This document shows, one piece after another, positions 5,761 to 62,669 of a stretch of 64,000 bases of DNA. The number at the start of each line of letters is the position of its first letter. Positions within the stretch are counted from its first letter, which is position 1. The notes under the pieces were generated by a model. The model saw only the letters and a program-made list of their open reading frames with translations. It made no database searches and was not told the origin of the DNA. This DNA is from a virus. Taxonomy: Duplodnaviria; Heunggongvirae; Uroviricota; Caudoviricetes. The DNA lies in the IMG/VR virus record IMGVR_UViG_3300045988_149282, positions 1 to 64,000 of that record; one strand, given 5' to 3'. Position numbers and translations under genes: made by a program.

Positions 5761-7320
5761 CTAATCTCGTTTCAGAACTCCAAAATCGAATGCGCCATCA
5801 ATAGGCAATACACCTTCTGCAAAGCCAGGTGTGGTGTCGATGATGTGTTTTCGCTCATAAGAGTGAGACAACAGGTATTTGTTGCTAATGTCAATGAAAT
5901 CAGTGATAAAACACACGTTTGCCTGATTCTTCTTGGCTCGTAAGCCACGACCGACACGCTGCCTCATTTCAACTTCTGCTTTCCCACCACCAGCCAGAAT
6001 GACCGCACCAACGCTTGGCACATCAACACCGACATCCAGAATAGTCGAGCCTATTAAAACATCTATTTCGCCAGACGCTAAACTGTTCAGCTTTGCTTGC
6101 CTTGTCGCCTGGTTTGATTCCCCATAGATGAAGTCAACTCTAAGGCCGGACTCCTTCATCATCTCCATCAGGATTTGCCCGTGGCGTTTAAGACGAACCA
6201 GAGTCATGCAATTGAGAGAATGTTGCTTATAGAGCAATGCTTCGCGCACAATGGCCTCGTTACGTCCCAAATTATACACGATCCCCAACTGATAAGCCTT
6301 TTGGTAGGCTGTGCTCATACCTACTCTAAAATTGAGGTGTTTGTTGGCAAGTTCGGCCTTGATTCTGGCCTCGTCTGGCTTGTAGGCAACTTTATGATAA
6401 AGGAAGTATGGTTTTGCCAGAATGCCTCTATCAATCAGGTACTTTTCCGTGACTTTTATTTCAATTCGCCCGGCCACTGCCATCAGGCGCATGTTGGCTT
6501 CCGTCGAATCCTTCATGAACGGCGTGGCTGTAAGCGCCAGACGATAGTCTGCGTTCACACATAATCTGGCGATGTCATAGAAATTAGAGCCTGAAGACTC
6601 ATGCGCCTCTTCCAGAATAAGAAGAGAGACACTTGAAAGGAAGCGTTTCACCAACTCCCGACGTTTGAGGTGGTAGCTTTTCTTATCTGGTGTTGCATCG
6701 CGTGGTGGTTCTTCGAGGAAACTTGCAAGAGTTTGAACTGTAGCGACGTTGATATGTCGTGATACCTGGAACTCACCCGAGCCAATTACTCCAACCTTTT
6801 GGTCCTTTAACCACGGTTCGCCATTTTCGGCGCGGTAGTCGATGGATCTCTGGAAGTTTTCGGCCATTTGAAACATCAGAACAGAGCGGGTTGTTAAAAA
6901 TAATGTCATTCGACCGATACGTGCAGTTGCTTTGCAGGCAACGTTAGATTTCCCGCCACCAGTAGCGATCTGCGCAATCATCATTCCCTCTCGAACCAGT
7001 GTTTCTACTGTCTGATCTTGGTACGCATAATCAGGGTTGTATGGAAATGGGTTAACCGCAGGATTTGGTTTACCCAGCGTCGGGGCTTTGTCTTTGCGGA
7101 TATGAACACATTTGATGCCCGCCTTGTTCAAATTAGCCGCCACGGGCTTGGCAAAGCCAGCAGGGAACGAGTTTTTGCTCCAGTTGAACATTGTGCTTGT
7201 GCCCTTCCAGTCGCCAGCCTCGACTTCGTAGCTCAACATTTGCTGCACCAGTTGCTTTACCTTGTCATCTGCGCCAGAAATAAGCGCATTTACTGCGTTA
7301 GATACAATCCGAACAGTCAT
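5761..7320 (-). CDS. superfamily-2 DNA/RNA helicase (DEAD/DEAH-box, ResIII-like)
   Basis: Walker A (ATGGGKS), DExH motif II (LILEEAHE), motif VI (QRVGRGLRA); RBS AAGGAAAGAGG before ATG at 7320. Confidence 0.85.
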   Translation of the reverse strand: MTVRIVSNAVNALISGADDKVKQLVQQMLSYEVEAGDWKGTSTMFNWSKNSFPAGFAKPVAANLNKAGIKCVHIRKDKAPTLGKPNPAVNPFPYNPDYAYQDQTVETLVREGMMIAQIATGGGKSNVACKATARIGRMTLFLTTRSVLMFQMAENFQRSIDYRAENGEPWLKDQKVGVIGSGEFQVSRHINVATVQTLASFLEEPPRDATPDKKSYHLKRRELVKRFLSSVSLLILEEAHESSGSNFYDIARLCVNADYRLALTATPFMKDSTEANMRLMAVAGRIEIKVTEKYLIDRGILAKPYFLYHKVAYKPDEARIKAELANKHLNFRVGMSTAYQKAYQLGIVYNLGRNEAIVREALLYKQHSLNCMTLVRLKRHGQILMEMMKESGLRVDFIYGESNQATRQAKLNSLASGEIDVLIGSTILDVGVDVPSVGAVILAGGGKAEVEMRQRVGRGLRAKKNQANVCFITDFIDISNKYLLSHSYERKHIIDTTPGFAEGVLPIDGAFDFGVLKRD

Positions 7321-7402
7321 AAACCTCTTTCCTTAGTGCCTTTTGTATGTTATTTGGCTATTATAATAAGTAAGTGATTACTTAGTGGATTGTAGCAATA
7401 AA

Positions 7403-8083
7403 ATGGACGTAAAAATCACGATTTTGCAGGTTGATGTTGCCAACCTTCGCCCGAATACCTGGAACACCAATTCGGTTGGTGCGCAGAATTTCGAAAAACT
7501 GAAAGGTTCTATCGAAAAATTGGGCTTTTTTAAGCCAATTTTGGCTCGTGAGCTTGAAGATGGATTTTTTGAAATCCTCGGCGGCGAACATCGCTGGCGT
7601 GCTGCTATTGAGCAAGGAATTTCAACGGTTCCTGTGCTTTCTGTGGGCAAAATTAGCGATGTCGTGGCAAAACAGATGTCACTGGTGGACAACGAGCGAT
7701 ACGGTGAAGACGACCAAATCGCATTGCAACGCTTCATTGAAGAAATTCAGTCAGAACTTGACTATCAACTGTCTGAAATCGCCCCGTATGACGACGAAAT
7801 CTCGATGGTTTTAGCAAAAGAGGCGGCAATCGACCTTGAAGCACTGGAGGCGTTGTCTCGTGGTAGTGATGAGCCTGTCGATACCGACAAACGAGAGAAA
7901 ACCGAACGTGTGGGTGCGGAACATCAGACCATGCGCTTCAAAGTAACTTTCGATGCGTCAGATCGTGTTGCAGAAACTATAAAAAACATCATCAAAGAGC
8001 AGGCTATTAACACCGGTAATGAAATGGAGAACGCTGGTGAGGCTCTGGTGTGGCTGGTCGACTACTACAAGGAGCGTATGTAA
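7403..8083 (+). CDS. ParB-like nuclease domain protein 1
   Basis: ParB/Srx N-terminal domain signature (...FEILGGEHRWRAAIEQGISTVPVL...); ORF track 7385 (GTG), first ATG at 7403. Confidence 0.75.
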   Translation: MDVKITILQVDVANLRPNTWNTNSVGAQNFEKLKGSIEKLGFFKPILARELEDGFFEILGGEHRWRAAIEQGISTVPVLSVGKISDVVAKQMSLVDNERYGEDDQIALQRFIEEIQSELDYQLSEIAPYDDEISMVLAKEAAIDLEALEALSRGSDEPVDTDKREKTERVGAEHQTMRFKVTFDASDRVAETIKNIIKEQAINTGNEMENAGEALVWLVDYYKERM

Positions 8084-51955: not shown

Positions 51956-53274
51956 AAAAGTTGATCGCACTTAAGCATAAGCTGGACGAAATGAAAGCTA
52001 TGGGAACCAATGCAAAAAAAGAGGCATTGGCCAACATGGATGACTTTGAACAAAGCATGGTTTCATTGATGCTCAACCCTTTCATCCGTTTTGGGGTAAA
52101 GAAATACAAAGTGGCAAAGCCGCTTAGTGAGTCCGTCCCAAGTGACGAAAAAGCCATTGATGTACTGAATAAGCTGGCCTCTCGCGAGCTGACGGGGAAC
52201 GCAGCAATAGCAGCTGTTGAGTCTATCGTGGCGTCAATGTGCGCCGATGGGCAGGACGTGTTCCGTCGTTTCCTCTTAAAAGACCCGAAAGCAGGTGTTG
52301 GGATTAGCCTATGCAACAAGGTTTTTGAAAATCCCATTCCGAAATTCGAGGTGCAGCTGGCGTCACCGTATAAAGAAAAAGGCGACAAATACCCCTTCAA
52401 GCCAAATCCTAAAGCAAAATGGCCGATGATTGGCAGTCTTAAGCTCGATGGTTTGCTAGTAATTTGCGAGGTTATTGTTGACGAGGAAGAGGTTAACTTC
52501 CTTTCTCGTACTGGTAATCCAATCACGTCTCTCGATCACCTAAAGCCAGCAATGCTCGAATTAGGCAAACTTTCAGGCCACAAACACATCTTCTTCGATG
52601 GTGAAGGAACAGCCGGTTCATTTAACCAGTCCGTATCTGCATTGCGCAAAAAGAACGTGCAGGCAATTGGCGCTATTTATCATGTTTTCGACTTCTTCCT
52701 ACCGGAATGGCGAGCACAGGCTAAATCCAAAGAGTATGCAAAGACAGGTATGAAGCTGAAAGAGCGCCTGGCTATTCTCGTGGCGTTGTTCAAAAACGAT
52801 CGCAGTGAAGGCTACACACAAGACATTCACCTGCATCCGTTCTATATCATCCATAGCCACGAAGACCTCATCGAACGCTTCATGAAACGCCTGGACGATA
52901 ACGAAGAAGGGGAGATGGGTAAAGATCCGAACTCTGTTTACGAGTTTAAACGCACCCGCAGCTGGTGGAAGTTAAAAGACGAAGATTCAGAAGATGGTGA
53001 AATTATCGATTTTGAGCCGGGCGATCCGGACTCTGGTTTTGCCAACACGCTTGGAAAAATTGTTATTCGTCTTGAAAACGGCGTCATCGTGCGTGCGAGC
53101 GGCATTAAGCATAAATATCTGGACGAGATCTGGAACAACAAAGAGAAGTACCGTGGTCGTATTGTTGAGGTTCATTGTCACGAGAAAACACCGGATGGCA
53201 GCTTACGCCACCCACGACTGAAATGGCCGCGTTGCTTACGCGATACAGAAGATCGAATCGGAGATAAAGAATGA
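51952..53274 (+). CDS. ATP-dependent DNA ligase (candidate)
   Basis: Nucleotidyltransferase motif I KxDG (SLKLDGLLV), FFDGEG, motif V-like WWKLK; RBS GGAGG. Confidence 0.7.
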   Translation: MKKLIALKHKLDEMKAMGTNAKKEALANMDDFEQSMVSLMLNPFIRFGVKKYKVAKPLSESVPSDEKAIDVLNKLASRELTGNAAIAAVESIVASMCADGQDVFRRFLLKDPKAGVGISLCNKVFENPIPKFEVQLASPYKEKGDKYPFKPNPKAKWPMIGSLKLDGLLVICEVIVDEEEVNFLSRTGNPITSLDHLKPAMLELGKLSGHKHIFFDGEGTAGSFNQSVSALRKKNVQAIGAIYHVFDFFLPEWRAQAKSKEYAKTGMKLKERLAILVALFKNDRSEGYTQDIHLHPFYIIHSHEDLIERFMKRLDDNEEGEMGKDPNSVYEFKRTRSWWKLKDEDSEDGEIIDFEPGDPDSGFANTLGKIVIRLENGVIVRASGIKHKYLDEIWNNKEKYRGRIVEVHCHEKTPDGSLRHPRLKWPRCLRDTEDRIGDKE

Positions 53275-53450
53275 TGCTCGGCTGGATGATTGCATTTTTA
53301 GCAGTTGGTTTTTTCATCGGTATTGTGGTGATGTCCAGTTGCATTAATGACTACATTAAAAACGGTGTTATAGAAAGACGCGGTCGTATTTATCGCATTG
53401 TAGAAATAACCAACACCCTGAAGGAGATTAAGGATGATCGTATTAAGTAA
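53271..53450 (+). CDS. small membrane protein (59 aa), paralogue family member
   Basis: Below the ORF-track size cutoff; ATG overlaps the ligase stop; N-terminal TM helix then basic tail (RRGRIYRIVE). Confidence 0.4.
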   Translation: MMLGWMIAFLAVGFFIGIVVMSSCINDYIKNGVIERRGRIYRIVEITNTLKEIKDDRIK

Positions 53451-53649
53451 ACGGGAGAAGGAAACGCTTCATGAAATCAGTAAGTGGCCGGAGTTCCCTG
53501 AGTACTGGAAGCCTAAAACGCGAGCTAAGTTAGAGCGTTTAGGGTTGGTTGCAAACGTTTCTGAAACGAAGTGTTCGGCCAACTACCAGTTAACTGATAA
53601 AGGGAAAGTATTGCTACAGCAATTAGTAGAATCAGGAGTGTTAAAATGA
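53434..53649 (+). CDS. hypothetical small protein (71 aa)
   Basis: ORF with GGAG RBS. Confidence 0.4.
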   Translation: MIVLSKREKETLHEISKWPEFPEYWKPKTRAKLERLGLVANVSETKCSANYQLTDKGKVLLQQLVESGVLK

Positions 53650-53798
53650 TTCCATACATCTCATTAGCTTTTATGGGTGGCTTCCTTATCGGCTTCGGCA
53701 TCTGTCGTGATTTAATTAAGCAGGAACTTAAAACCAAAACACTGTGCATCGGAAAGCGTGTGTATCGGGTAGTTCATGAAACAAAGGTTAAAAAATGA
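53646..53798 (+). CDS. small membrane protein (~50 aa), paralogue family member
   Basis: Not in the ORF track (short); ATG overlaps the upstream stop; TM helix plus basic tail (GKRVYRVVHE) resembling 53271..53450. Confidence 0.35.
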   Translation: MIPYISLAFMGGFLIGFGICRDLIKQELKTKTLCIGKRVYRVVHETKVKK

Positions 53799-54085
53799 GC
53801 AATTTAACTTCTTGGGACTGGTGGTTGGCCACCTATTTCTTAGCGGCCGGAGTCGCATTCGCCTTTTACGTAGGTCAGTTAGTCGTAAAACTGTTGCTGA
53901 TTAAATTTGCTAGTCATAAACGTATCGATGATGGTCTGTGGCGTCTTGGCACCCTGGTGGAAACTCGCTACGGGCAACTTAAGGAGAACGAAACCATTAC
54001 TATCCAGGCGAAACGATTCACTGCCACCATCACAAGAACACCTAGTCGTAGAGTGGCCTTGATCAAAAAAGTCACAACCGAATAA
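53795..54085 (+). CDS. small membrane protein (96 aa), paralogue family member
   Basis: N-terminal TM helix (WWLATYFLAAGVAFAFYVG) followed by a basic region; third member of the apparent family. Confidence 0.45.
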   Translation: MSNLTSWDWWLATYFLAAGVAFAFYVGQLVVKLLLIKFASHKRIDDGLWRLGTLVETRYGQLKENETITIQAKRFTATITRTPSRRVALIKKVTTE

Positions 54086-54094
54086 AAACATCAT

Positions 54095-54116
54095 GATAAG
54101 TATTTACTTACTTATC
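54095..54116 (+). promoter_or_regulatory. TAAGTA-type hairpin motif (GATAAGTATTTACTTACTTATC) at the head of the tRNA/ncRNA region
   Basis: Inverted repeat GATAAGTA / TACTTATC followed by a T-rich tract, at the start of the ~780-bp noncoding stretch preceding the tRNAs. Confidence 0.4.
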
Positions 54117-54863
54117 TTTTATGTATAAGATGACTTTGTTTTCGTTGAGACGCGACTGTTTGAACTTAAATACAAGTGCAAACGAAGAAGTCTATCTGGC
54201 AGTAGCCTAATAAGCCAAACACCAGCGAGGTCAGTTTCCAGCCTCGTTACCGAAATGGGACACACTGAGCGAGTGTGATTGCAGAACGCAGGAGGGAACA
54301 TTCATGTTCCCTCCGATGAAGTAACAGAATGGGCGGTTGGTATATTTTCAACTCCATATGACTCCCGGATTCTTAGCCTCTGACCGCCCATCCTGTTACG
54401 TCATTTTGTTCAATTATGTCGTTTATACTGGGTTAAAAAGCGGCGACGTAGCCCGGCTGGTATGGTTAGCCAGCACACAACGTTGAGGCCATTACATTTT
54501 TATCAATTCTAAGGTTCTATTCACAGAGATACCGGCGAGCGTTGATATGTAACATGTTGGGCAAACATTCAATCGGAGTAGTGGCCTCAACGTTGTGAAG
54601 ACAGGATTGTTGTGTAGGTTTAACCACTGTTGCCATTGGTGCCTGTTTTCACAACAAATGATTCCATACATCACATTGTATAAATTACAAAGTAGGTGCT
54701 GTCCTCAGAAACATCATCTACTTAAAGATTTTGCCTTCTACTATTGAGCGAAGTCGAAAGCGTCTGGCACTAACGAAAAGTGCAAGTAGCGGTGCGTTTC
54801 CTGGCAGAAACTAAACCGTCGCGATTGGCACTGTTGAGTAATAAATACTGGCAGTGCTGAATT

Positions 54864-54938
54864 GATGGTGTAGCTCAGCGGTAGAGCAGTTGGCTGTTAA
54901 CCAACTGGTCGGTGGTTCGAATCCACCCACCATCGCCA
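54864..54938 (+). tRNA. tRNA-Asn (anticodon GTT)
   Basis: Hand-folded cloverleaf: 7-bp acceptor GATGGTG/CACCATC, D-arm GCTC/GAGC, anticodon loop CTGTTAA, T-loop TTCGAAT, encoded CCA. Confidence 0.8.
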
Positions 54939-54943
54939 ATTTA

Positions 54944-55030
54944 GGGGAGTTAGTCCGTAGAGGTAGCGGTGTAGACTGTAAATCTACTGTCATGGCGACT
55001 CGGGTGGTTCGACTCCATCACTCCCCACCA
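54944..55030 (+). tRNA. tRNA-Tyr (anticodon GTA), class II with long variable arm
   Basis: Acceptor GGGGAGT/ACTCCCC, anticodon stem GTAGA/TCTAC with loop CTGTAAA, long variable arm, T-loop TTCGACT, encoded CCA. Confidence 0.75.
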
Positions 55031-55034
55031 AATT

Positions 55035-55110
55035 GCCGGTTTAGCTCAGTTGGTAGAGCGCCTGCCTTGTAAGCAGGATGTCAGCGGTTCGAGTCCGTTA
55101 ACCGGCACCA
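55035..55110 (+). tRNA. tRNA-Thr (anticodon TGT)
   Basis: Acceptor GCCGGTT/AACCGGC, D-arm TAGCTCAGTTGGTAGAGC, anticodon loop CTTGTAA, T-loop TTCGAGT, encoded CCA. Confidence 0.8.
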
Positions 55111-55404
55111 ACATAATATTGAGAACATTGGCGTAACGGGTTCATATCCCAATTTATGAATATAATGTTGCGTTGCAGCGTGACAACCAGTGTTCTCAAC
55201 ATTGTGGTGAATGCACAGGCTGATGTGCGACGTAGAAGCAAGCGGATGAACTGCCTGAAGGCCGCTAACGTAGGCAATGCCGGAGATCAGCACCGGCCAT
55301 CACAATTTGGCTCTCTTGCAACAGCATAACGCTGAAATACGTCCAACCTGGTGCGGTCTGATCACCCGCCGTTAGCTCCACGAAACGGAGCACACAACAC
55401 AATT

Positions 55405-55491
55405 GGAGAGTAGGGAGCATGGTGCTCAAGCGGTCTTGAAAACCGTCCCATTGTGCAAACGATGATGGTTCGATTCCATTACTCTCCGCCA
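55405..55491 (+). tRNA. tRNA-Ser (anticodon TGA), class II (candidate)
   Basis: Acceptor GGAGAGT/ACTCTCC, anticodon stem GCGGT/ACCGT with loop CTTGAAA, long variable region, T-loop TTCGATT, CCA. D-arm atypical, hence lower confidence. Confidence 0.6.
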
Positions 55492-55628
55492 GACACAGCG
55501 TTGAGCGGTTTGGCCTTTTAATCAACCAGATTAAGACTCCGCTAACATAAACCAGACCGCTCAACGCTGTGATAGACAATTACGGCAGACGTTCTTAACC
55601 ATAGCTTGCTAACATCCTAGCAACACTT

Positions 55629-55657
55629 TTTTCAGCGCAAAATTCAAAGGGGCTTCG
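55629..55657. repeat. 29-bp direct repeat, left copy, flanking the lipoprotein cassette
   Basis: TTTTCAGCGCAAAATTCAAAGGGGCTTCG; 27/29 identical to 56550..56578. Confidence 0.65.
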
Positions 55658-55669
55658 GCCCCTTTTTTG
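55647..55669 (+). terminator. Rho-independent terminator after the tRNA cluster
   Basis: AAGGGGC-TTCG-GCCCCTT hairpin followed by TTTTTT; also forms the left copy of the 29-bp direct repeat flanking the lipoprotein gene. Confidence 0.65.
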
Positions 55670-55784
55670 ATTTGTTGACACTTAGTTATATTCACGTATC
55701 GTTTTATCGCTTTGATCCGAGGCAGCGTTAGACTGCCTTCATGTTCCTGATTAGATCGCAGCAGTTAAACATGGAGACAAATTA

Positions 55785-56339
55785 ATGAAGAAGTGCCATC
55801 TCAATATTTTCGCATCTCTAATAATTGCGTTAACACTAACAGGGTGTAACGAATCTGAAATAGATGAATTAACGTTAATAGGCAAAGATAAAAGTGAACT
55901 TGAACAAAATTATAAAGCCCAATTCAAGAAGCTAACACAAAATGTTGAAGTGTTTATTCTTCAAGATAAAAATAGTCCGACTGAAAAAGAACCGCATACG
56001 AATGGCAACCTGATCGACGGAAAAGTCGAAATGTCATTAACCAGTAATGTTGGTAAGTATACATTCATCCAGATAAGTGAAATGCTGACAAAGGAGTACG
56101 GAAAACCCGTTGCTACAAAAGATCGTGTTTTTAACAGAGAAGCAGTATCTGGCATGGACTGTATTGAAACTAAAACTTGTGGAGCTGGTAAATATTATGA
56201 AATCTTTCGAGGGAAGGATAGATTGATTATGGTGTCAAACGGTGCCGGTCTTTTACACGAAAAGGAAGGTGTAACACTACTCACCATCACCGATAAACAA
56301 TTTAAATTTTCTCGTTTAGAAGAAGATAAAATAAAATAA
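55785..56339 (+). CDS. lipoprotein (184 aa), accessory/moron gene
   Basis: Signal peptide plus lipobox (LTLTGC); AT-rich, K-rich coding sequence unlike the surrounding genome; flanked by 29-bp direct repeats. Confidence 0.65.
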   Translation: MKKCHLNIFASLIIALTLTGCNESEIDELTLIGKDKSELEQNYKAQFKKLTQNVEVFILQDKNSPTEKEPHTNGNLIDGKVEMSLTSNVGKYTFIQISEMLTKEYGKPVATKDRVFNREAVSGMDCIETKTCGAGKYYEIFRGKDRLIMVSNGAGLLHEKEGVTLLTITDKQFKFSRLEEDKIK

Positions 56340-56549
56340 TGACAGGGGCGTATACGCCCCTATCTAAAATTTGACATTAAACATATATTGCATCTGGTAT
56401 CAGCAATTTTTGTGCGCTATGTAAGTCCTTACCTGCAATCAGTCTCATAAATATCGGATTTTACGTAGCGTACCATCGTTACAGCAAGCATCAAATTATT
56501 CACTGACATTTATGCGCTGAAAACAGCGTTACTTACCGTAAAATAACAA

Positions 56550-56578
56550 TTTTCAGCGCAAAATTTAAAGAGGCTTCG
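56550..56578. repeat. 29-bp direct repeat, right copy, flanking the lipoprotein cassette
   Basis: TTTTCAGCGCAAAATTTAAAGAGGCTTCG; degenerate copy of the terminator-containing left repeat. Confidence 0.65.
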
Positions 56579-56590
56579 AATCTGCACAAC

Positions 56591-57919
56591 CTATTGTGCG
56601 TACTCGCCCAATTTTAATGTTTCACGCTTATATTCATCAACTATCTCACATGATTTAATATAGATATGGCACAATAGGTTATCACTATCATCATTATCGT
56701 TTATTGCCATAAGTGCCAACTTTTTCTCATATTCATCGATCGCATCACTCAACTGATCACCTGTAATTACATCTGACTCACTCGAGAAATATAACTGCCC
56801 AAGATTTACCGCATTTTTTCCAGTTTTTCTTTGCTCTATGTAATTTTTAATCATATCCTTCACATCCTTTTCACTACTCAGTATTTCACTTTCGAAATGG
56901 ACATGCTCTGAAATCGACGCGACTCTGCAACCGATCAAACGATGAATATAGTCATCAATAGACGTAACACTATCATTAGCTTTTTTTAGTGCTTCATCAA
57001 AAATGCTCTTTACCTCATTTGGCAAATTTTTAAAATAATCATCAATTAAACCAGATAATGGTGTTTGGTAGTTCATTAATACCGATGAAGCAACTTGCGG
57101 ACGACGAGCCACCCAGATTTCTTTGACTTCAACTTGAGAATAATATTCCTTAATCACGTTCCAAAAGTATTTTAACATCTTGGTTTTAAATATTTTATCA
57201 AATCTATCCTTTATAAATAGCTCTACTTCAGGCATGCTTGAATAAGCATCATCAAAGAATATTTCATCTTTGAAAAAATCATATTTATTTAATAAAGCAT
57301 ACAGTTTTTTTGAATCCAGCGGTTCACGAGAATCGATGTCCAATCCAAAAACTGCAATAACCAACTTCATTTGCGGTGGTATTTTTCCACTCAATTGAAT
57401 AATATATTCCATTTTTTCATCAAAACAATTTCCATCTATGTAAAATCGGTTATCTACATAGACTAATATATTGGTAATATGTTTTATGTACTGAATAACC
57501 TCATGCTTTCTTACCAATGGATAAAAAAACGAATGCATTTCATTTTTATTAAATTGTTTTTTTGTCTGTTCAATGATTGGTATGACATTATTGTACAACT
57601 CATCATGCTGATTTAATAAAGTGTCAAACCATTCTTTGAAAGAATTTTTTCTCATCTCAATCAATGAATCGGTAGTTATCCTAACGGCCTCCAGTGCTGC
57701 CTTTGCACTTTTTCTTGCTTCATAGGCGTTCCACGCTGTTGCACAAAAAGCCGCTGTCGTTATAAAACTACTCAATACAGCAATTTGGTCTGTAACCTTC
57801 CAATCTTGAAATGGCTCAAGTAGTAAACCTAAAAACAAAATTATTATGGAAAACATTAGAATTGCAACAGAAATAAAAACAGGCATGTATGCTCTCGTAC
57901 TTACCATTGTTAGTTGCAT
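56591..57919 (-). CDS. membrane-anchored protein (442 aa; two N-terminal TM helices plus large cytoplasmic domain), accessory gene
   Basis: AT-rich minus-strand ORF; TM helices VFISVAILMFSIIILFLGLLL and IAVLSSFITTAAFCATAW; GATAGGTAAGTA-type motif on the minus strand upstream (57981-58002). Confidence 0.6.
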   Translation of the reverse strand: MQLTMVSTRAYMPVFISVAILMFSIIILFLGLLLEPFQDWKVTDQIAVLSSFITTAAFCATAWNAYEARKSAKAALEAVRITTDSLIEMRKNSFKEWFDTLLNQHDELYNNVIPIIEQTKKQFNKNEMHSFFYPLVRKHEVIQYIKHITNILVYVDNRFYIDGNCFDEKMEYIIQLSGKIPPQMKLVIAVFGLDIDSREPLDSKKLYALLNKYDFFKDEIFFDDAYSSMPEVELFIKDRFDKIFKTKMLKYFWNVIKEYYSQVEVKEIWVARRPQVASSVLMNYQTPLSGLIDDYFKNLPNEVKSIFDEALKKANDSVTSIDDYIHRLIGCRVASISEHVHFESEILSSEKDVKDMIKNYIEQRKTGKNAVNLGQLYFSSESDVITGDQLSDAIDEYEKKLALMAINDNDDSDNLLCHIYIKSCEIVDEYKRETLKLGEYAQ

Positions 57920-58058
57920 TAAATATTAACTAAATTAAGTTGTGATTAACAGGCAAGTTTACGATGTATTGCAGACATTAAATAGGTTTTTACTTACCTA
58001 TCTTTTATAGTAATATTTATTTTCTGGTTAAGTAACACATAATTATTATGAGGTAAAC

Positions 58059-58304
58059 ATGACTATCGTTATCTACGGACGAGATAACTGCTCATATTGC
58101 AAACGTGCGGTCGAGCTGGCGAAACAACTAAAGGGACACGGCTATGGTGATTATGAGTACATCGACATCACCACTGCCGGTATCGATAAGGAAAAACTTA
58201 GCGAAATTGTTGGCAAACCGGTAGAGACTATCCCCCAGGTACTGATCGATGGCCAACCGATTGGCGGATACACAGAACTGGCTGCATACGTCACCACTCT
58301 CTAA
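58059..58304 (+). CDS. glutaredoxin (NrdH/Grx-like thioredoxin fold)
   Basis: 81-aa protein with CSYC active site near the N-terminus and glutaredoxin-like TIPQVLIDGQPIGG motif; hairpin plus T-run terminator follows. Confidence 0.8.
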   Translation: MTIVIYGRDNCSYCKRAVELAKQLKGHGYGDYEYIDITTAGIDKEKLSEIVGKPVETIPQVLIDGQPIGGYTELAAYVTTL

Positions 58305-58309
58305 TTTTA

Positions 58310-58333
58310 ACGGCTCACAGGAGCCGTTTTTGT
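58310..58333 (+). terminator. Rho-independent terminator after the glutaredoxin gene
   Basis: ACGGCTC-ACAGG-AGCCGT hairpin followed by TTTTTG. Confidence 0.6.
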
Positions 58334-58514
58334 TCCCACCAAACTCACGCTTGGTTCCCTTAAAATTCAAAAAACAACGGCTAAATGATTCCATACCTAC
58401 TATGTATGGAATCATTACTGAAAATGAGTTACTTTTACTCTTGATCCTATAAGAATCTATGCCTAATATACTGTTTACTTATACAGTGAATCGGCGTAAC
58501 TCGGTGATTGTCAT

Positions 58515-59618
58515 ATGAAAAATAGCTTTGACAGAGCACGCGCTGCGGAGAACACCTCAAAAGAGGCGATTGAGTATCTCGAAAGAGCATCTCAAATGCA
58601 GGCCGTTATGATCTCGCAGGTCAGCAATGACATGAGATTCTCGGACGCATTCATGTTATTCACTCGCTTATCTCTGCTGATAACAAGACGTCGGCCAGAG
58701 ATCGCTGTTCATTGTATTTTGATACATGTTTTGCCGCACATTGCCGATGTAAAAGTAAGTGACATTAATAGGTTCATGGTGAACCAACTGGTCAACCCAC
58801 TAATACTGGATGGCAAAATTGTTATGGGCCGCCGCGTTTTCTCTCTGATGAAGCAGTTCCTTAGCTGGTGCGCCTTCCAGGGGATGATAGACGTGTCACC
58901 GTTAAACGATATGTCACTAAACAAAGTTGCCGGTGGCGCAAAGCCTACACCTCGCGAGCGGAAGCTGACCGACGCAGAGGTATGGGTGTTCTGGAATATA
59001 TGGGACTACTTCAATGTGTGCGCTGGTACAAAATGGGCGGCCAGGCTGTGTCTTGTATCCGCAAGACGACCTGACGAAGTACTGCGGGCTAAAAAAAGTG
59101 AGTTCAATCTTAAGCGTGGGGTTTGGAATCAAGGCAAGAGGAACAAATCTGCCCGTGAGCATTCTCTGCCTTTAAGCTCATTAATGCGCACTTGTATTGA
59201 AGAGTTGTTCGAATATGGTAAAGACAGCCAGTGGCTCGTGCCTTCGAATAAAAAAATCGGGAAAGACCTTCCTATGTCTAAAGTGGCAATAGCCCAGGCA
59301 TTACGTCGTATTCTGGAACGACCAGAACTGATGGAGCTTGAGCCATTTACACCCCGAGATTTGCGCCGTACTGCGCGTAGTTACTTCCCAGCATTAGGCA
59401 TAAGCCAGGAGGTATCACGTAAAATCATGAACCACAGTCTTGAGGGGATAGATCGGGTCTACGACCGGCACGATTATATGGACGAGATGCGAGACGCCTT
59501 AGAAAGTTTCTCGACGTACATCGCATCAATCGTAGAGCAACCGGATTTAGACGAAATTGACCACAAATTTAAGGGAGATCGTCTATCAACAGAGCTTATT
59601 CGTGTAAATTTTTCATAG
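58515..59618 (+). CDS. tyrosine recombinase (phage integrase family)
   Basis: Catalytic-domain motifs: ARLCLVSARRPDEV (box I Arg), FTPRDLRRTARSY (H/RxxR region), RVYDRHDY (putative catalytic Tyr). N-terminal start uncertain. Confidence 0.75.
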   Translation: MKNSFDRARAAENTSKEAIEYLERASQMQAVMISQVSNDMRFSDAFMLFTRLSLLITRRRPEIAVHCILIHVLPHIADVKVSDINRFMVNQLVNPLILDGKIVMGRRVFSLMKQFLSWCAFQGMIDVSPLNDMSLNKVAGGAKPTPRERKLTDAEVWVFWNIWDYFNVCAGTKWAARLCLVSARRPDEVLRAKKSEFNLKRGVWNQGKRNKSAREHSLPLSSLMRTCIEELFEYGKDSQWLVPSNKKIGKDLPMSKVAIAQALRRILERPELMELEPFTPRDLRRTARSYFPALGISQEVSRKIMNHSLEGIDRVYDRHDYMDEMRDALESFSTYIASIVEQPDLDEIDHKFKGDRLSTELIRVNFS

Positions 59619-59999
59619 AGACTTTATGGCCTCAACAACCTTTTGTGATGCGCCTTTCTCTTTACCGAATCGCTCGTTATATGCAGCAAGAACCTGTTTT
59701 TCGTCCTCGTTAAGAGGAGCAGTGCCTTCTTTGTATAAAAATGCTGCGAGTTCGGGTTGGCGTTCTTCCAGCACCATCATCATAAGACGACTTGGCTCAA
59801 TGCCCAGTGCCAGCGCCAGCGGACGAACCTTATCGATAGGCAAAGGAATTTTGCCGCTTTTAATTAAAGAAAGGTTGTTGGCGTTTTTATACCCAATTGT
59901 TTTGGCTATCTGGGCCTGGCTCATAGGTGAGGATTCAATCAACCCTGCGATAAAAGCAGCATAGCGACTTTCTATAAATTCAATCTTGTTGTCAGACAT
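59613..59999 (-). CDS. XRE-family helix-turn-helix transcriptional regulator
   Basis: HTH_XRE-like segment (SQAQIAKTIGYKNANNLSLIKSGK); convergent with, and overlapping by a few nt, the recombinase gene end. Confidence 0.7.
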   Translation of the reverse strand: MSDNKIEFIESRYAAFIAGLIESSPMSQAQIAKTIGYKNANNLSLIKSGKIPLPIDKVRPLALALGIEPSRLMMMVLEERQPELAAFLYKEGTAPLNEDEKQVLAAYNERFGKEKGASQKVVEAIKSL

Positions 60000-60249
60000 T
60001 GTTACAACCTTTGCGCGTTCAATTCTCTCTGGTAAGTGCTTACCGATATTACATCAAAGGTTAGGGTTGTAAAGCTATTATCATTTTTTCGATAGGCACT
60101 TAAAAGACCGGTTAAAGGCCATTGCACGGAGAAAAATTGGCCCAAAACAGGTAAGAAAATTAACTTGCATATGATATGAATGTATTCAGTATTGATATAA
60201 ATTTTAGTAGTATTCCTTACCATAGTATAAGTTAGAATGGATTGATTGA

Positions 60250-60462
60250 ATGAACACCACTATTTCCAGCCTAATCGCTCTTGAGATCGGACACGTACAG
60301 AAATTAGCTGATGAGTGTGTAGCTGACATCCTCACCGATCTACCGAATGAGCAGATTCAGGTTGGTGTGAATGACACAACTGGCTTTATATTCGAACTTA
60401 ACAACAAACGCTTCACGCTTCTCAATATCGGCTCCGGGTCTTTAGCCGTCAGAATCTGTTAA
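60250..60462 (+). CDS. hypothetical small protein (70 aa)
   Basis: ORF only; weak support. Confidence 0.3.
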   Translation: MNTTISSLIALEIGHVQKLADECVADILTDLPNEQIQVGVNDTTGFIFELNNKRFTLLNIGSGSLAVRIC

Positions 60463-60560
60463 CCCCTCTTCTCCCTGCGCGAATGGCTTAGTTCCCTGTT
60501 CGCGCAGTGCTACATTAAACACACTAGTAAATAATTTGTTTTCATAACAAAGGATTAGCC

Positions 60561-62669
60561 ATGTCTAAAAAACGTTCCATCAAAGAGGTTCAGGACTTCC
60601 GTGACAGTGTAAAACGAGTAGTCGCTCTCCTTTCAGGTAAAAACATCCCTGTTGCAGAACGAGGGGACGACGCTTATGTACGCTATAACGATGATGGAGA
60701 GCCAATTCTCGTAAACATCCCATCAATCCCGGATAACGCAACACCGGCATTGATGAATGCTGTGCGCGGATTTCTCGATCATGAGGTTGCTCACATTTTG
60801 TTTACCGATATTCGTGTGTCCAACAAAATGAGAGAAAAAGGACGCGTTCCTTCCTGGTCGCTATGGAATGCCTTAGAAGACGTGTTCATCGAGCGAAAAA
60901 TGGGTCAGGTCTTTAACGGAACAAGACGTAATCTGATGGCAACTCAGCGCCTTATAATCGAAAAAGTCTTTAAACCAAAGGCTTCAGAGGCTATTGCTTA
61001 TTGTGGCAAAGATCAGCGCGCGCTTTTTCTAAACTTCTTTCTCTGTCCGGTTGTAAGAGCCTGGGATGGCCAAGCACCGTTCGTAGATTTCATGGATGAA
61101 TACTGGCCTGTCATTGAGAAACCAATTTCATTATTAAAAGAACATGGTATCGATGTGGCCGTGCGTAACATGTCTTGCACCGAGGATTGTGTAAAGGTGG
61201 CTGCGACCATAGCTAAGATCCTCAAAGACACTGAAAGTGAAAGCAAAGGTAAGGAGTCAGCTCCGGGAAAAACTTCCGATCCTTCAGACGCTGACCAGAC
61301 GGATGCCTCTGGAGAAAACAATGAAGACAACGAAGATCATGAGACACCCTCATCGTTAGATAATCACAAATCTATCGAATCAGAATCACATAGTAAGCAC
61401 AAACATGATAATAACGACAGCGATGATTCAGATAATTCTGAATCATCAGAAACAATATTCGATGATACAGAAAATGATAAAGAGGTATCAGATTCTGATG
61501 CTTCTGATAACGCGGCGTCAGAATCATTAACCGCTGACCACGAAAAAAGAAAAACGACAGAAGACGGCTCTTCAGATATCCCAACTCCGTCAAAAATGAG
61601 TCTGGAAGAGGCTTTAGAGGAGCTGGATAGCATAGAAGATGAAGTCGGAGGCATGACAGAAGATGCTCTATCCGAAACGATTAAAAGCGAGTTAACAGAA
61701 AGCTCGAAAAGCGAATACAGGCCATACAATCGCTCATACGACTTCATCGGCTCGATTGATCAGGCAGAAGCCCATATCAAACGGCTTATTAAAACATTCT
61801 CCGATATTGATTTGGGAGGATATCCAATCAGCCGCTATCGCATCGTTCCTGAAGGCAACCAGCTCTTCGACAAATATATTGAAAAGCATCTTTCGTCAGG
61901 TGTTTCGTCGACGCTGGCAAAAGACCTGGAGCGAGCAATAGCAAGCAGAAACAGAGTTCAGTTTATACCGGGCCAGCGTCGGGGGCGCATTCATGGTTCT
62001 AGTATCTACAGATTAGCAATGAATGATGCTCGCGTGTTTCGTAAAAAAGAAGAATCTAAAGCCGTTAACGCCTGTGTTCAACAAGTGATTGATTTATCAG
62101 GTTCAATGAGTGGTATAACGATTAAACTGGCTCTTGCAAGTGCATATACCATCGCCGATGCCCTTGATCGAATAAATGTTCCCAACATTATCACCGGCTT
62201 CACTACATTTGGTAGTCATATGGCGGCAGGAGAACTTAAGGCTGTCAAGTATGAGTTCTCTCGCTTTGAATCTTTAATGCTACCTATCATCAAAAATTGG
62301 AATGAAAAGGTAAATTCTCGCGAAGTTCGCTCACGTATGGGGTGCGTAGGCTACACATTCCCACTTCTTAATAACGTGGATGGTGAAAGCATAGCCAGCC
62401 TTGCATCGTTATTTTCCGGTCGCTTGGAGGACAGGAAGATCATGCTTGTTCTGAGTGATGGCGCGCCGTGGGCTGTTGGGAGAGGTTTTGACGCTCATTT
62501 GCGTTCAGTTGCGAAGCAAATTGAAACGCAGACTGATATTGATTTGATGGCAATTGGCATCATGACTGACGCACCGGAGAGATTTTACTCAAATCATGCC
62601 CTGGTAACGAGCGTTGATAGTCTTGGTTCATCTGTAGTTACTGAACTATCTCGTATCATTTTAAAGTGA
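60561..62669 (+). CDS. von Willebrand factor A (vWA) domain protein, CobT-like, with long acidic Ser/Asp/Glu-rich linker
   Basis: C-terminal vWA MIDAS motif (VIDLSGSMSG), N-terminal HEVAH segment, central ~150-aa acidic low-complexity region; paired with the downstream AAA+ gene. Confidence 0.7.
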   Translation: MSKKRSIKEVQDFRDSVKRVVALLSGKNIPVAERGDDAYVRYNDDGEPILVNIPSIPDNATPALMNAVRGFLDHEVAHILFTDIRVSNKMREKGRVPSWSLWNALEDVFIERKMGQVFNGTRRNLMATQRLIIEKVFKPKASEAIAYCGKDQRALFLNFFLCPVVRAWDGQAPFVDFMDEYWPVIEKPISLLKEHGIDVAVRNMSCTEDCVKVAATIAKILKDTESESKGKESAPGKTSDPSDADQTDASGENNEDNEDHETPSSLDNHKSIESESHSKHKHDNNDSDDSDNSESSETIFDDTENDKEVSDSDASDNAASESLTADHEKRKTTEDGSSDIPTPSKMSLEEALEELDSIEDEVGGMTEDALSETIKSELTESSKSEYRPYNRSYDFIGSIDQAEAHIKRLIKTFSDIDLGGYPISRYRIVPEGNQLFDKYIEKHLSSGVSSTLAKDLERAIASRNRVQFIPGQRRGRIHGSSIYRLAMNDARVFRKKEESKAVNACVQQVIDLSGSMSGITIKLALASAYTIADALDRINVPNIITGFTTFGSHMAAGELKAVKYEFSRFESLMLPIIKNWNEKVNSREVRSRMGCVGYTFPLLNNVDGESIASLASLFSGRLEDRKIMLVLSDGAPWAVGRGFDAHLRSVAKQIETQTDIDLMAIGIMTDAPERFYSNHALVTSVDSLGSSVVTELSRIILK

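Follow-up and report, generated by a model that had tools for sequence, protein, structure and literature searches.

The DNA analysed here is a 64,000-nucleotide stretch of an SSU5-like phage-plasmid (positions 1 to 64,000 of the IMG/VR record IMGVR_UViG_3300045988_149282; hereafter the window, meaning the whole stretch), which is ~98% identical to Escherichia phage Cyrano (pLF82). Two genes in the window, int for a tyrosine recombinase and a regulator gene for an XRE-type helix-turn-helix (HTH) protein, run tail to tail, and a 33-bp perfect palindrome is found 99 bp upstream of the int start codon (Table 1). An earlier note, made from the sequence alone, had described a tyrosine recombinase overlapped by a few nucleotides by an XRE regulator on the opposite strand, in an element carrying partition genes, and the open reading frame (ORF) list, Pfam, PHROG and the fold comparisons bear this description out. 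The neighbours named in that note are present as well, namely a glutaredoxin gene (58059-58304), an AT-rich portion at 56-58 kb (31-36% GC) and four tRNA genes (54864-55491).

The gene pair is ordinary and already annotated. The surrounding 7.2-kb stretch (window 53400-60600) matches 1,366 plasmid records from Escherichia, Klebsiella, Salmonella, Enterobacter, Yersinia and others, in which the two genes are labelled 'site-specific integrase' and 'helix-turn-helix transcriptional regulator'. SSU5-like phage-plasmids are common and carry resistance and virulence cargo, and their tyrosine recombinase has been listed as a persistent gene (PMC7969092); nevertheless, we found no paper in the searchable literature that defines the site or the role of this enzyme. 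As far as that literature shows, the 33-bp site, its covariation with the recombinase and its role as a mosaic breakpoint are new, as are the His-to-Arg change in the active site, the LexA-controlled promoter and the conserved lock with the repressor gene.

Table 1. Features of the int-regulator region and their positions in the window.
Feature	Position	Strand	Basis or remark
Single 15-mer ATGATTCCATACATC (one arm + ATC), at the start codon of a 50-aa ORF	53646..53660	+	Sequence match, conservation
Second single 15-mer ATGATTCCATACATC, upstream of the tRNA cluster	54658..54672	+	Sequence match, conservation
Variable cargo region (lipoprotein, AT-rich 442-aa gene, glutaredoxin)	55670..58383		Homology breaks
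33-bp perfect palindrome AATGATTCCATAC-CTACTAT-GTATGGAATCATT (13-7-13), putative recombination site	58384..58416		Inverted-repeat search, conservation
Putative int promoter: TTGATC (58441-58446), 17 nt, TAATAT (58464-58469)	58441..58469	+	Read from sequence
LexA (SOS) box TACTGTTTACTTATACAGTG	58469..58488		Overlaps the -10 end and start-site region of the int promoter
Tyrosine recombinase (int), 367 aa	58515..59618	+	ORF list, Pfam
XRE-type HTH regulator, 128 aa	59613..59999	-	ORF list, PHROG, AlphaFold model
14-bp palindrome GGTAAGTGCTTACC, candidate autoregulatory operator	60031..60044		Just downstream of the regulator -10; conserved block, 10 lineages
Regulator promoter TTTACA-16-TAATAT	60046..60073	-	Promoter scan; both hexamers conserved in 10 lineages
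70-aa ORF, first gene of the rightward operon (cobT, cobS, dnaE), diverging from the regulator	60250..60462	+	PHROG 2627

The gene pair and its palindrome

The region is 95-99% identical to its counterparts in phages CMS-2020a and PhiR41_1, and the int region is ~74% identical to that of Klebsiella phage-plasmids. Cyrano, CMS-2020a, PhiR41_1 and the Klebsiella relatives share one gene order: ligase, small ORFs, tRNAs, cargo, int, regulator, 70-aa ORF, cobT, cobS and dnaE. In the window, int and the regulator gene overlap by 6 nt (59613-59618, both stop codons counted), so placed that the int stop codon TAG is the complement of the last codon of the regulator, and the regulator stop codon TGA is the complement of the last sense codon of int. 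Convergent overlaps of 4, 6, 9, 11, 16 or 32 nt were seen in every phage-plasmid lineage examined, down to 45% identity of the recombinase, and the arrangement is thus not a product of chance.

Among 5,426 complete Escherichia coli genomes, the int-regulator locus was located 254 times, in 252 genomes, in every case on a plasmid and never on a chromosome. A published survey (PMC9600943) describes the P1, N15 and SSU5 types of phage-plasmid as exclusively extrachromosomal. The exact 33-mer was found once per genome in 206 of the same E. coli genomes, always on a plasmid, never on a chromosome and without annotation. The whole 108-kb genome of Cyrano also contains a single palindrome. As DNA, the palindrome is predicted to fold into a hairpin of -11.2 kcal/mol (z -7.5).

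We compared the palindrome first in 76 loci taken from viral contigs, species-representative genomes and annotated records (int nucleotide identity 74-100%), in which it lies 128-132 bp from the int ATG with both arms invariant. Later fetches raised the number of loci with this arm type to 85, and the arms are invariant in all of them, while the 7-bp spacer takes ten forms. Some of these forms are flips of one another: ATAGTAG in PhiR41_1 and CTACTAT in the IMG/VR contig 2541047850_000005 stand between identical flanks, and TTAATAG and CTATTAA make a second pair. A distant clade with 45-48% amino acid identity in the recombinase (Xenorhabdus, Providencia, Pantoea, Rahnella and Erwinia) carries (A/G)TGACTCCAGAC-N7-GTCTGGAGTCA(T/C) at the same position; the changes, at two arm positions, are symmetrical, and the arms still stand 7 bp apart. 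Furthermore, the recombinase gene and the palindrome stand alone among plasmid genes in Pantoea vagans CP028350 (508 kb), Rahnella victoriana CP089920 (723 kb) and a 437-kb Erwinia contig, where we failed to find an XRE gene or phage genes beside them. The palindrome therefore goes with the recombinase and not with the regulator, and this pattern of conservation argues strongly that Int and the palindrome belong together. We had also considered the palindrome as an operator for the XRE protein; this was rejected, as (i) the regulator promoter has a different conserved palindrome of its own, and (ii) Int and the palindrome occur without the XRE gene.

Some variation was noticed at the margins of the palindrome. 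In PhiR41_1 (5985-6045) and 2541047850_000005 the arms are lengthened to 17 bp (CAGT...ACTG), and the resulting 38-bp block has a copy of a 9-bp direct repeat, CTGAAAATG, on either side; spacer orientation is all that distinguishes the two loci. The four nucleotides outside the right arm (window 58417-58420) are hypervariable (ACTG, GCTG, AGTG, AGTA, CGTG or ACTA) among int regions that are otherwise 97-99% identical, and the bases directly left of the palindrome vary among related loci too.

The recombinase and its probable role

The recombinase matches the Pfam family Phage_integrase (PF00589) with an E-value of 2.9e-10 and 40.6 bits (cut-off 27.1). Its AlphaFold2 model (pLDDT 85.9) contains three short N-terminal helices followed by a core-binding and a catalytic domain, and the best folds retrieved by Foldseek were lambda Int (residues 75-356; TM 0.75 normalised to target; E 8.5e-7), Tn1549 Int and Xer. 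The arm-binding domain PF13356 was detected neither in this protein nor in any member of its family; the closest outgroup proteins, which are 26-34% identical, do possess it. Around the nucleophile, the motif VYDRHDY...MR is similar to that of P4-like integrases. The best reading of these data is a recombinase of lambda/P4 ancestry that has lost the arm-binding domain.

The catalytic residues appear to be R185, K211, R281 (in place of His-II), R284, H307 and Y316. In a profile alignment to lambda Int the catalytic residues fall on R212, R311, H333 and Y342, and R281 falls on H308. R185, R284 and Y316 are invariant in an alignment of 24 sequences, at least 90% of which also keep K211 and H307. 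The first catalytic His (H308 of lambda Int, H289 of Cre) is Arg in all members without the arm domain, and five of the six outgroups with that domain retain His. The catalytic constellation to which the earlier note had pointed is thus found in most of its parts (the Tyr, both Arg, the Lys and the second His), the first His being replaced by Arg throughout the family. Given the conservation of R185, K211, R284, H307 and Y316, catalysis is plausible. In type IB topoisomerases a Lys occupies the position equivalent to the first catalytic His, and a basic residue there is compatible with catalysis.

The substitution could be read in another way: the protein would have lost recombination and would now bind the palindrome and the single 15-mers as a regulator or an architectural factor. 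Apart from the family-wide His-to-Arg change, this idea draws on the single-arm sites, which make no obvious sense for recombination, and on the lineages without the LexA promoter, whose sequence seems to place the right arm over the likely -35 of int, suggesting autoregulation. Nevertheless, we regard such a domesticated protein as very improbable, as (i) little or no variation is seen in the Tyr, both Arg, the Lys and the second His among proteins of 25-100% identity, (ii) the basic residue of type IB topoisomerases supports catalysis at the position in question, (iii) the spacer is fixed at 7 bp while its sequence drifts, and (iv) a natural crossover maps to the site.

The crossover came to light in comparisons of related loci. 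Homology breaks at 55666-55678 and at 58382-58384 in many pairs, the latter being the left edge of the palindrome. When all loci were compared against all, 36 pairs were at least 92% identical over the 700 bp to the left and at most 90% identical over the 1,200 bp to the right, and the reverse was found in 15 pairs. The IMG/VR contig 2731957815_000001 is a natural recombinant. It is 99-100% identical to a Kluyvera-type relative (IMG/VR 3300011574_000026) over the 4.4 kb up to the site, the last 160 nt without a mismatch, and the identity drops to 78-84% for ~1 kb right of the site. From the site onwards, the same contig is 99-100% identical for ~975 bp to the Cronobacter sakazakii plasmid pH322_1, the left flank of which is unrelated. 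At the junction the three share only the 33 bp, spacer CTATTAA included, and because all of them carry these 33 bp, the junction lies inside the site. Such a pattern is to be expected if co-resident elements underwent site-specific exchange and then a homologous crossover 1 kb away. Crossovers between co-resident relatives would then fall at the palindrome and make it the fixed right border of a cargo hot spot; in this way the site explains both the sharp right border of the cargo and the mosaic relatives that switch there.

We consider it rather probable that int and the palindrome form a multimer-resolution module like Cre/loxP, in which a simple-site recombinase under LexA control acts on the palindrome next to a likely repressor gene. 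Two Int monomers would bind the two 13-bp arms, two palindromes would synapse, and strands would be exchanged across the 7-bp spacer, so that plasmid dimers would be converted into monomers, as by Cre at loxP in P1. Of the two roles that the earlier note had offered, this is the one we favour: there is one site per plasmid and the element is never chromosomal, which makes dimer resolution the most likely function. The lone copies on large replicons and the moderate expression in lysogens (below) also fit. Flipping of the spacer would do harm if the site had a fixed partner on the same molecule, and its occurrence again fits dimer resolution. Finally, multimers are expected to be frequent, since the element encodes RecA-like, UvsY-like and SbcCD-like proteins of its own. 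Cyclisation of virion DNA is a less likely role, because the site is ~41 kb away from the terminase genes in Cyrano. We also asked whether plasmids of 240-252 kb with the locus are cointegrates made by Int, and rejected this; the flanks of the locus are normal, and the mobile elements nearby are IS26, IS1 and IS3 only.

The likeness to Cre/loxP of P1 (and to Dre/rox of D6, Vika/vox and FLP/FRT) lies in a single recombinase gene beside a single site, with two 13-bp inverted arms and a short asymmetric spacer. As with Cre/loxP, the carrier is a plasmid prophage with one site per replicon, neither arm-type sites nor an arm-binding domain are present, and dimer resolution is the expected function. 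Nevertheless, no sequence homology to Cre was found (phmmer, no match in the PDB), and Cre ranked 36th by fold (Foldseek E ~8e-3). The resemblance is thus functional and does not place the recombinase in the Cre lineage. The present system further differs in its spacer (7 bp, not 8), the Arg at the first catalytic His, the LexA-controlled promoter of this clade, the tail-to-tail repressor gene and the extra single-arm copies kilobases away. Host XerCD at dif, and at cer/psi of plasmids, has the same proposed role, a site of two arms around a 6-8 bp spacer, and a place among the fold matches; however, Xer consists of two host paralogues acting on different arms, whereas here one element-encoded protein faces identical arms and no accessory sequences were identified. 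Defining the 33-bp site turns plasmid maintenance into a testable function. Moreover, the recombinase and its site are a candidate pair for genome engineering: they are not related to Cre by sequence, their spacer varies in nature, and arms of a second specificity exist (GTGACTCCAGAC arms).

The label 'integrase', which annotators use, implies a different role, in which the element would enter an attB of the host chromosome, with attP among the repeats of the tRNA region as the earlier note had suggested. The nearest sequence and fold relatives are indeed the lambda and P4-type integrases, which gave the best profile and fold matches for the core-binding and catalytic domains, and tRNA genes lie 3 kb away. 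This role is, however, hardly credible. Neither the locus nor the site has a chromosomal copy in the genomes searched, and hence no integration with attL and attR was seen, in line with the extrachromosomal state reported for phage-plasmids of this type. Unlike lambda and P4 integrases, the protein has no N-terminal arm-binding domain, no excisionase gene was detected near the locus, and the cognate site is a symmetric core with 13-bp arms and not the 3' end of a tRNA gene. We also rejected the tRNA region as the place of an attP, since the long hairpin repeats there share nothing with the conserved site.

The int promoter and the overlapping regulator gene

The putative int promoter is conserved as a pattern in 81 of the 85 loci, with a variable spacer. 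The LexA box that overlaps it is the sole CTGT-N8-ACAG in the window and has four mismatches to the 20-mer consensus. Its core is exact in 76 of the 85 loci, while the eight bases within it vary; of the other nine loci, eight show one or two mismatches in the core and one (Nissabacter) lacks it. Where a lineage has a shorter distance from the site to the ATG, the LexA box is missing. In the 108-kb genome of Cyrano, the box at int is one of two strong LexA boxes. The best-scoring one (TACTGTATGTGTATACAGTA) is located just upstream of a gene for a 129-aa S24 peptidase (UmuD-like), in the region 89275-89700 of the Cyrano record.

Published RNA-seq data of strain LF82, a Cyrano lysogen, allowed us to follow both genes with a LexA box. 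The coverage profiles of that study are plotted separately for the plus and minus strands, and its authors describe macrophages as SOS-inducing. The log2 values of int were 5.6 after overnight growth in LB, 6.1 after 6 h in medium, 8.9 after 1 h in macrophages and 10.3 after 6 h in macrophages; those of CYRAN_98, the other gene with a LexA box, were 7.2, 9.1, 11.3 and 12.2, respectively. int thus rises ~19-25-fold in macrophages, in parallel with CYRAN_98. In the lysogen it gives 49.5 normalised reads against a background near 10 (~5-fold). The conservation of the box and the expression data both agree with control of int by LexA, which would keep int low in lysogens and let it rise under DNA damage.

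The regulator scores 19.7 bits against Pfam HTH_19, below the cut-off of 30.2, and matches PHROG 8 'transcriptional regulator' at 1.3e-11. Its AlphaFold model (pLDDT 77.6) resembles C.BclI, C.AhdI, HigA, Stl and the DNA-binding domain of the 434 repressor (TM 0.7-0.8 to target, with weak Foldseek E-values). Homologues occur only on phage-plasmid contigs of 100-116 kb and, among phage records, only in nine that have int too; all are 124-129 aa long. Pfam detected no self-cleavage domain of the Peptidase_S24 type in the 128-aa protein, and induction is therefore not by self-cleavage. The Cyrano orthologue CYRAN_45 is 100% identical to the regulator and stands 10-fold above the local background in the LF82 lysogen; the authors of the LF82 study treat it as the putative master repressor, and they found Cyrano to be induced 39-fold by ciprofloxacin. 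The XRE protein is likely the prophage repressor. It would be transcribed from its own promoter, and the 14-bp palindrome next to that promoter, which is unrelated to the recombinase site, is a candidate operator for it, judging from position and conservation.

Salmonella phage SSU5 (NC_018843, 6855-6878) lacks a 6.5-kb block comprising the cargo, the palindrome, int, the regulator gene and the 70-aa ORF, and on both sides of the gap it is 95-98% identical to a Kluyvera plasmid in which the block is present. SSU5 is called virulent in one paper (PMC5427195), and its state fits the loss of a module for immunity and the plasmid state. The deletion was also considered as a product of Int, and this was rejected, as the junctions contain no arm sequence.

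At the junction of int and the regulator gene, no conserved intrinsic terminator was predicted in either direction, and with zero intergenic space the two transcripts must overlap. Antisense or interference control of the regulator by the int transcript is thus plausible. Taken further, the arrangement would work as an SOS-triggered switch: transcription of int, released from LexA, would run head-on into the repressor gene, and collision or antisense RNA would lower the repressor until the prophage is induced. We regard such a switch as possible, if doubtful. It would explain how a prophage whose repressor has no S24 domain responds to ciprofloxacin, and the two strong LexA boxes of Cyrano, the overlap kept in all phage-plasmid lineages and the lack of a conserved terminator are in its favour. 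Mildly in favour are also the changes between 1 h and 6 h in macrophages, during which int rose 2.6-fold, the regulator mRNA fell ~1.4-fold and the first rightward gene rose 4.3-fold. Against it, the regulator mRNA is high in macrophages (~5-fold over the medium control), where no virions are made, and the levels of int and the regulator move together across five conditions. Moreover, the overlap is likewise conserved where the LexA box is missing, namely in Xenorhabdus, Nissabacter, Providencia and an IMG/VR contig with 56% Int identity.

A comparable logic is found in the AntC system of N15 and the Tum system of coliphage 186, in which a small HTH repressor without an S24 domain controls an SOS-inducible prophage and a LexA box lies on a neighbouring promoter; the N15 case of a LexA-controlled partner is cited in PMC11652158. 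The present locus differs, as its LexA-controlled gene is a recombinase gene running head-on into the repressor gene, and no antirepressor gene was found in a scan for SOS-controlled antirepressors that covered the whole genome of Cyrano and other relatives in part. It is attractive to speculate that DNA damage is sensed through the LexA-gated recombinase promoter, and not through repressor cleavage or an antirepressor, with the int transcript acting on the overlapping repressor mRNA and Int perhaps also binding the single-arm sites; we hold this combined proposal to be unlikely. A switch of this kind is compatible with a recombinase role for Int, and in either case the LexA box and the overlap with the repressor gene give a handle on how SSU5-like elements sense DNA damage.

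We return to multimer resolution as the favoured reading, against which several points weigh. (i) The conserved single 15-mers 3.7 and 4.7 kb to the left of the palindrome and 6 kb to its right are left unexplained by it. (ii) With R281 at the first catalytic His throughout the family, the chemistry could be altered or lost. (iii) The crossover in the three related loci could stem from homologous recombination using the 33 bp as the sole identical stretch. (iv) The hexamers of the int promoter match the consensus at 8 of 12 positions, which is below the threshold of the promoter scan. (v) The repressor role of the XRE protein is drawn from expression, position and the SSU5 deletion, and not from genetics. 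(vi) Multimer resolution is itself deduced from context and gives no account of why SOS control would be useful.

Single arm copies, cargo and neighbouring features

Besides the two single 15-mers in the window, a third copy, on the minus strand, falls within dnaE, past the end of the window and ~6 kb right of the palindrome; the arm occurs nowhere else in the 108-kb Cyrano genome beyond these and the palindrome. All single copies are oriented toward the palindrome. Almost every lineage of the ATGATTCCATAC clade whose sequence reaches them, down to 56% Int identity, retains them even at wobble positions, and the distant clade has none. SSU5 has the copy upstream of the tRNA genes with one mismatch. 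An extra arm copy lies on the minus strand inside int in two lineages; it is exact in the IMG/VR contig with 56% Int identity, and in Klebsiella pJN2-26 it has two mismatches at the outer end of the arm. The spacers of the single sites match neither the spacer of the palindrome nor, in most lineages, each other.

These copies raise the possibility that Int rearranges or captures DNA, using the single 15-mers for shufflon-like inversion or cassette sites for integron-like capture. The single arms lie on the plus strand left and on the minus strand right of the palindrome, in the E. coli lineage a 20-nt match in inverted orientation links the copies at the 50-aa ORF and in dnaE, and the cargo hot spot abuts the palindrome. 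Integrons, too, combine a tyrosine recombinase, a LexA box in its promoter and a primary site upstream beside variable cargo, and the LexA box at int recalls their integrases. Rearrangement or capture nonetheless seems improbable to us. The ~60 loci that reach the dnaE copy all have the same arrangement, without alternative orientations of a segment as in shufflons, and inversion would split dnaE; no inversion or deletion between single 15-mers was seen, and the inversion enzyme suggested by the earlier note thus finds no counterpart among these loci. Furthermore, (i) the spacers of the single sites are unlike that of the palindrome, (ii) spacer flips occur in place and would turn inversion into deletion, and (iii) the distant clade keeps the palindrome without single sites. 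Unlike in integrons, no attC-like sites flank the cargo in any locus, the site is a perfect double-stranded palindrome, and from the tRNA cluster to the palindrome no further site, whether full or carrying an arm, is present in any locus.

The conserved 15-mer begins the ORF at 53646-53798. This ORF and another at 53271-53450, both downstream of the ligase gene, encode small membrane proteins that appear to be paralogues (...GRIYRIVEIT... and ...GKRVYRVVHET...). Four long hairpins with stems of 20-23 nt and loops of 38-82 nt are located within and beside the tRNA cluster (window 54316-54404, 54476-54597, 55109-55209 and 55494-55571), three of which carry CACAACGTTGAG...CTCAACGTTGTG; a search of the tRNA region with Rfam returned tRNAs only.

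The second 15-mer (54658-54672) was considered as the left border of the cargo and rejected, as that border lies at ~55670. Two 29-bp direct repeats (TTTTCAGCGCAAAATTCAAAGGGGCTTCG, 93% identical), at window 55629-55657 and 56550-56578, bracket a gene for a 184-aa lipoprotein-like product, and the first ends just before the left cargo border, which suggests a cassette-like unit. The 442-aa ORF (56591-57919, minus strand) lies where the window is richest in AT (31-36% GC). Its product has a membrane segment at the N-terminus, is assigned to PHROG 18168 (unknown function) and gave no match in Pfam; the gene is a cargo gene that only some relatives have. In Cyrano, the cargo gene directly left of the palindrome is CYRAN_43 (6992-7546, minus strand), which is expressed 723-fold above the prophage background in LF82, the highest level of any Cyrano gene; thus, the slot beside the palindrome can hold very strongly expressed morons.

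On the other side of the regulator gene, the 70-aa ORF keeps its place beside that gene in relatives, and its mRNA rises ~90-fold from LB to 6 h in macrophages in the LF82 data. Direct TGATA(T/C) repeats, ~22 bp from start to start, are located upstream of this ORF (window 60160-60215) and conserved in ten lineages; they could serve the rightward early operon as operators or as promoter elements.

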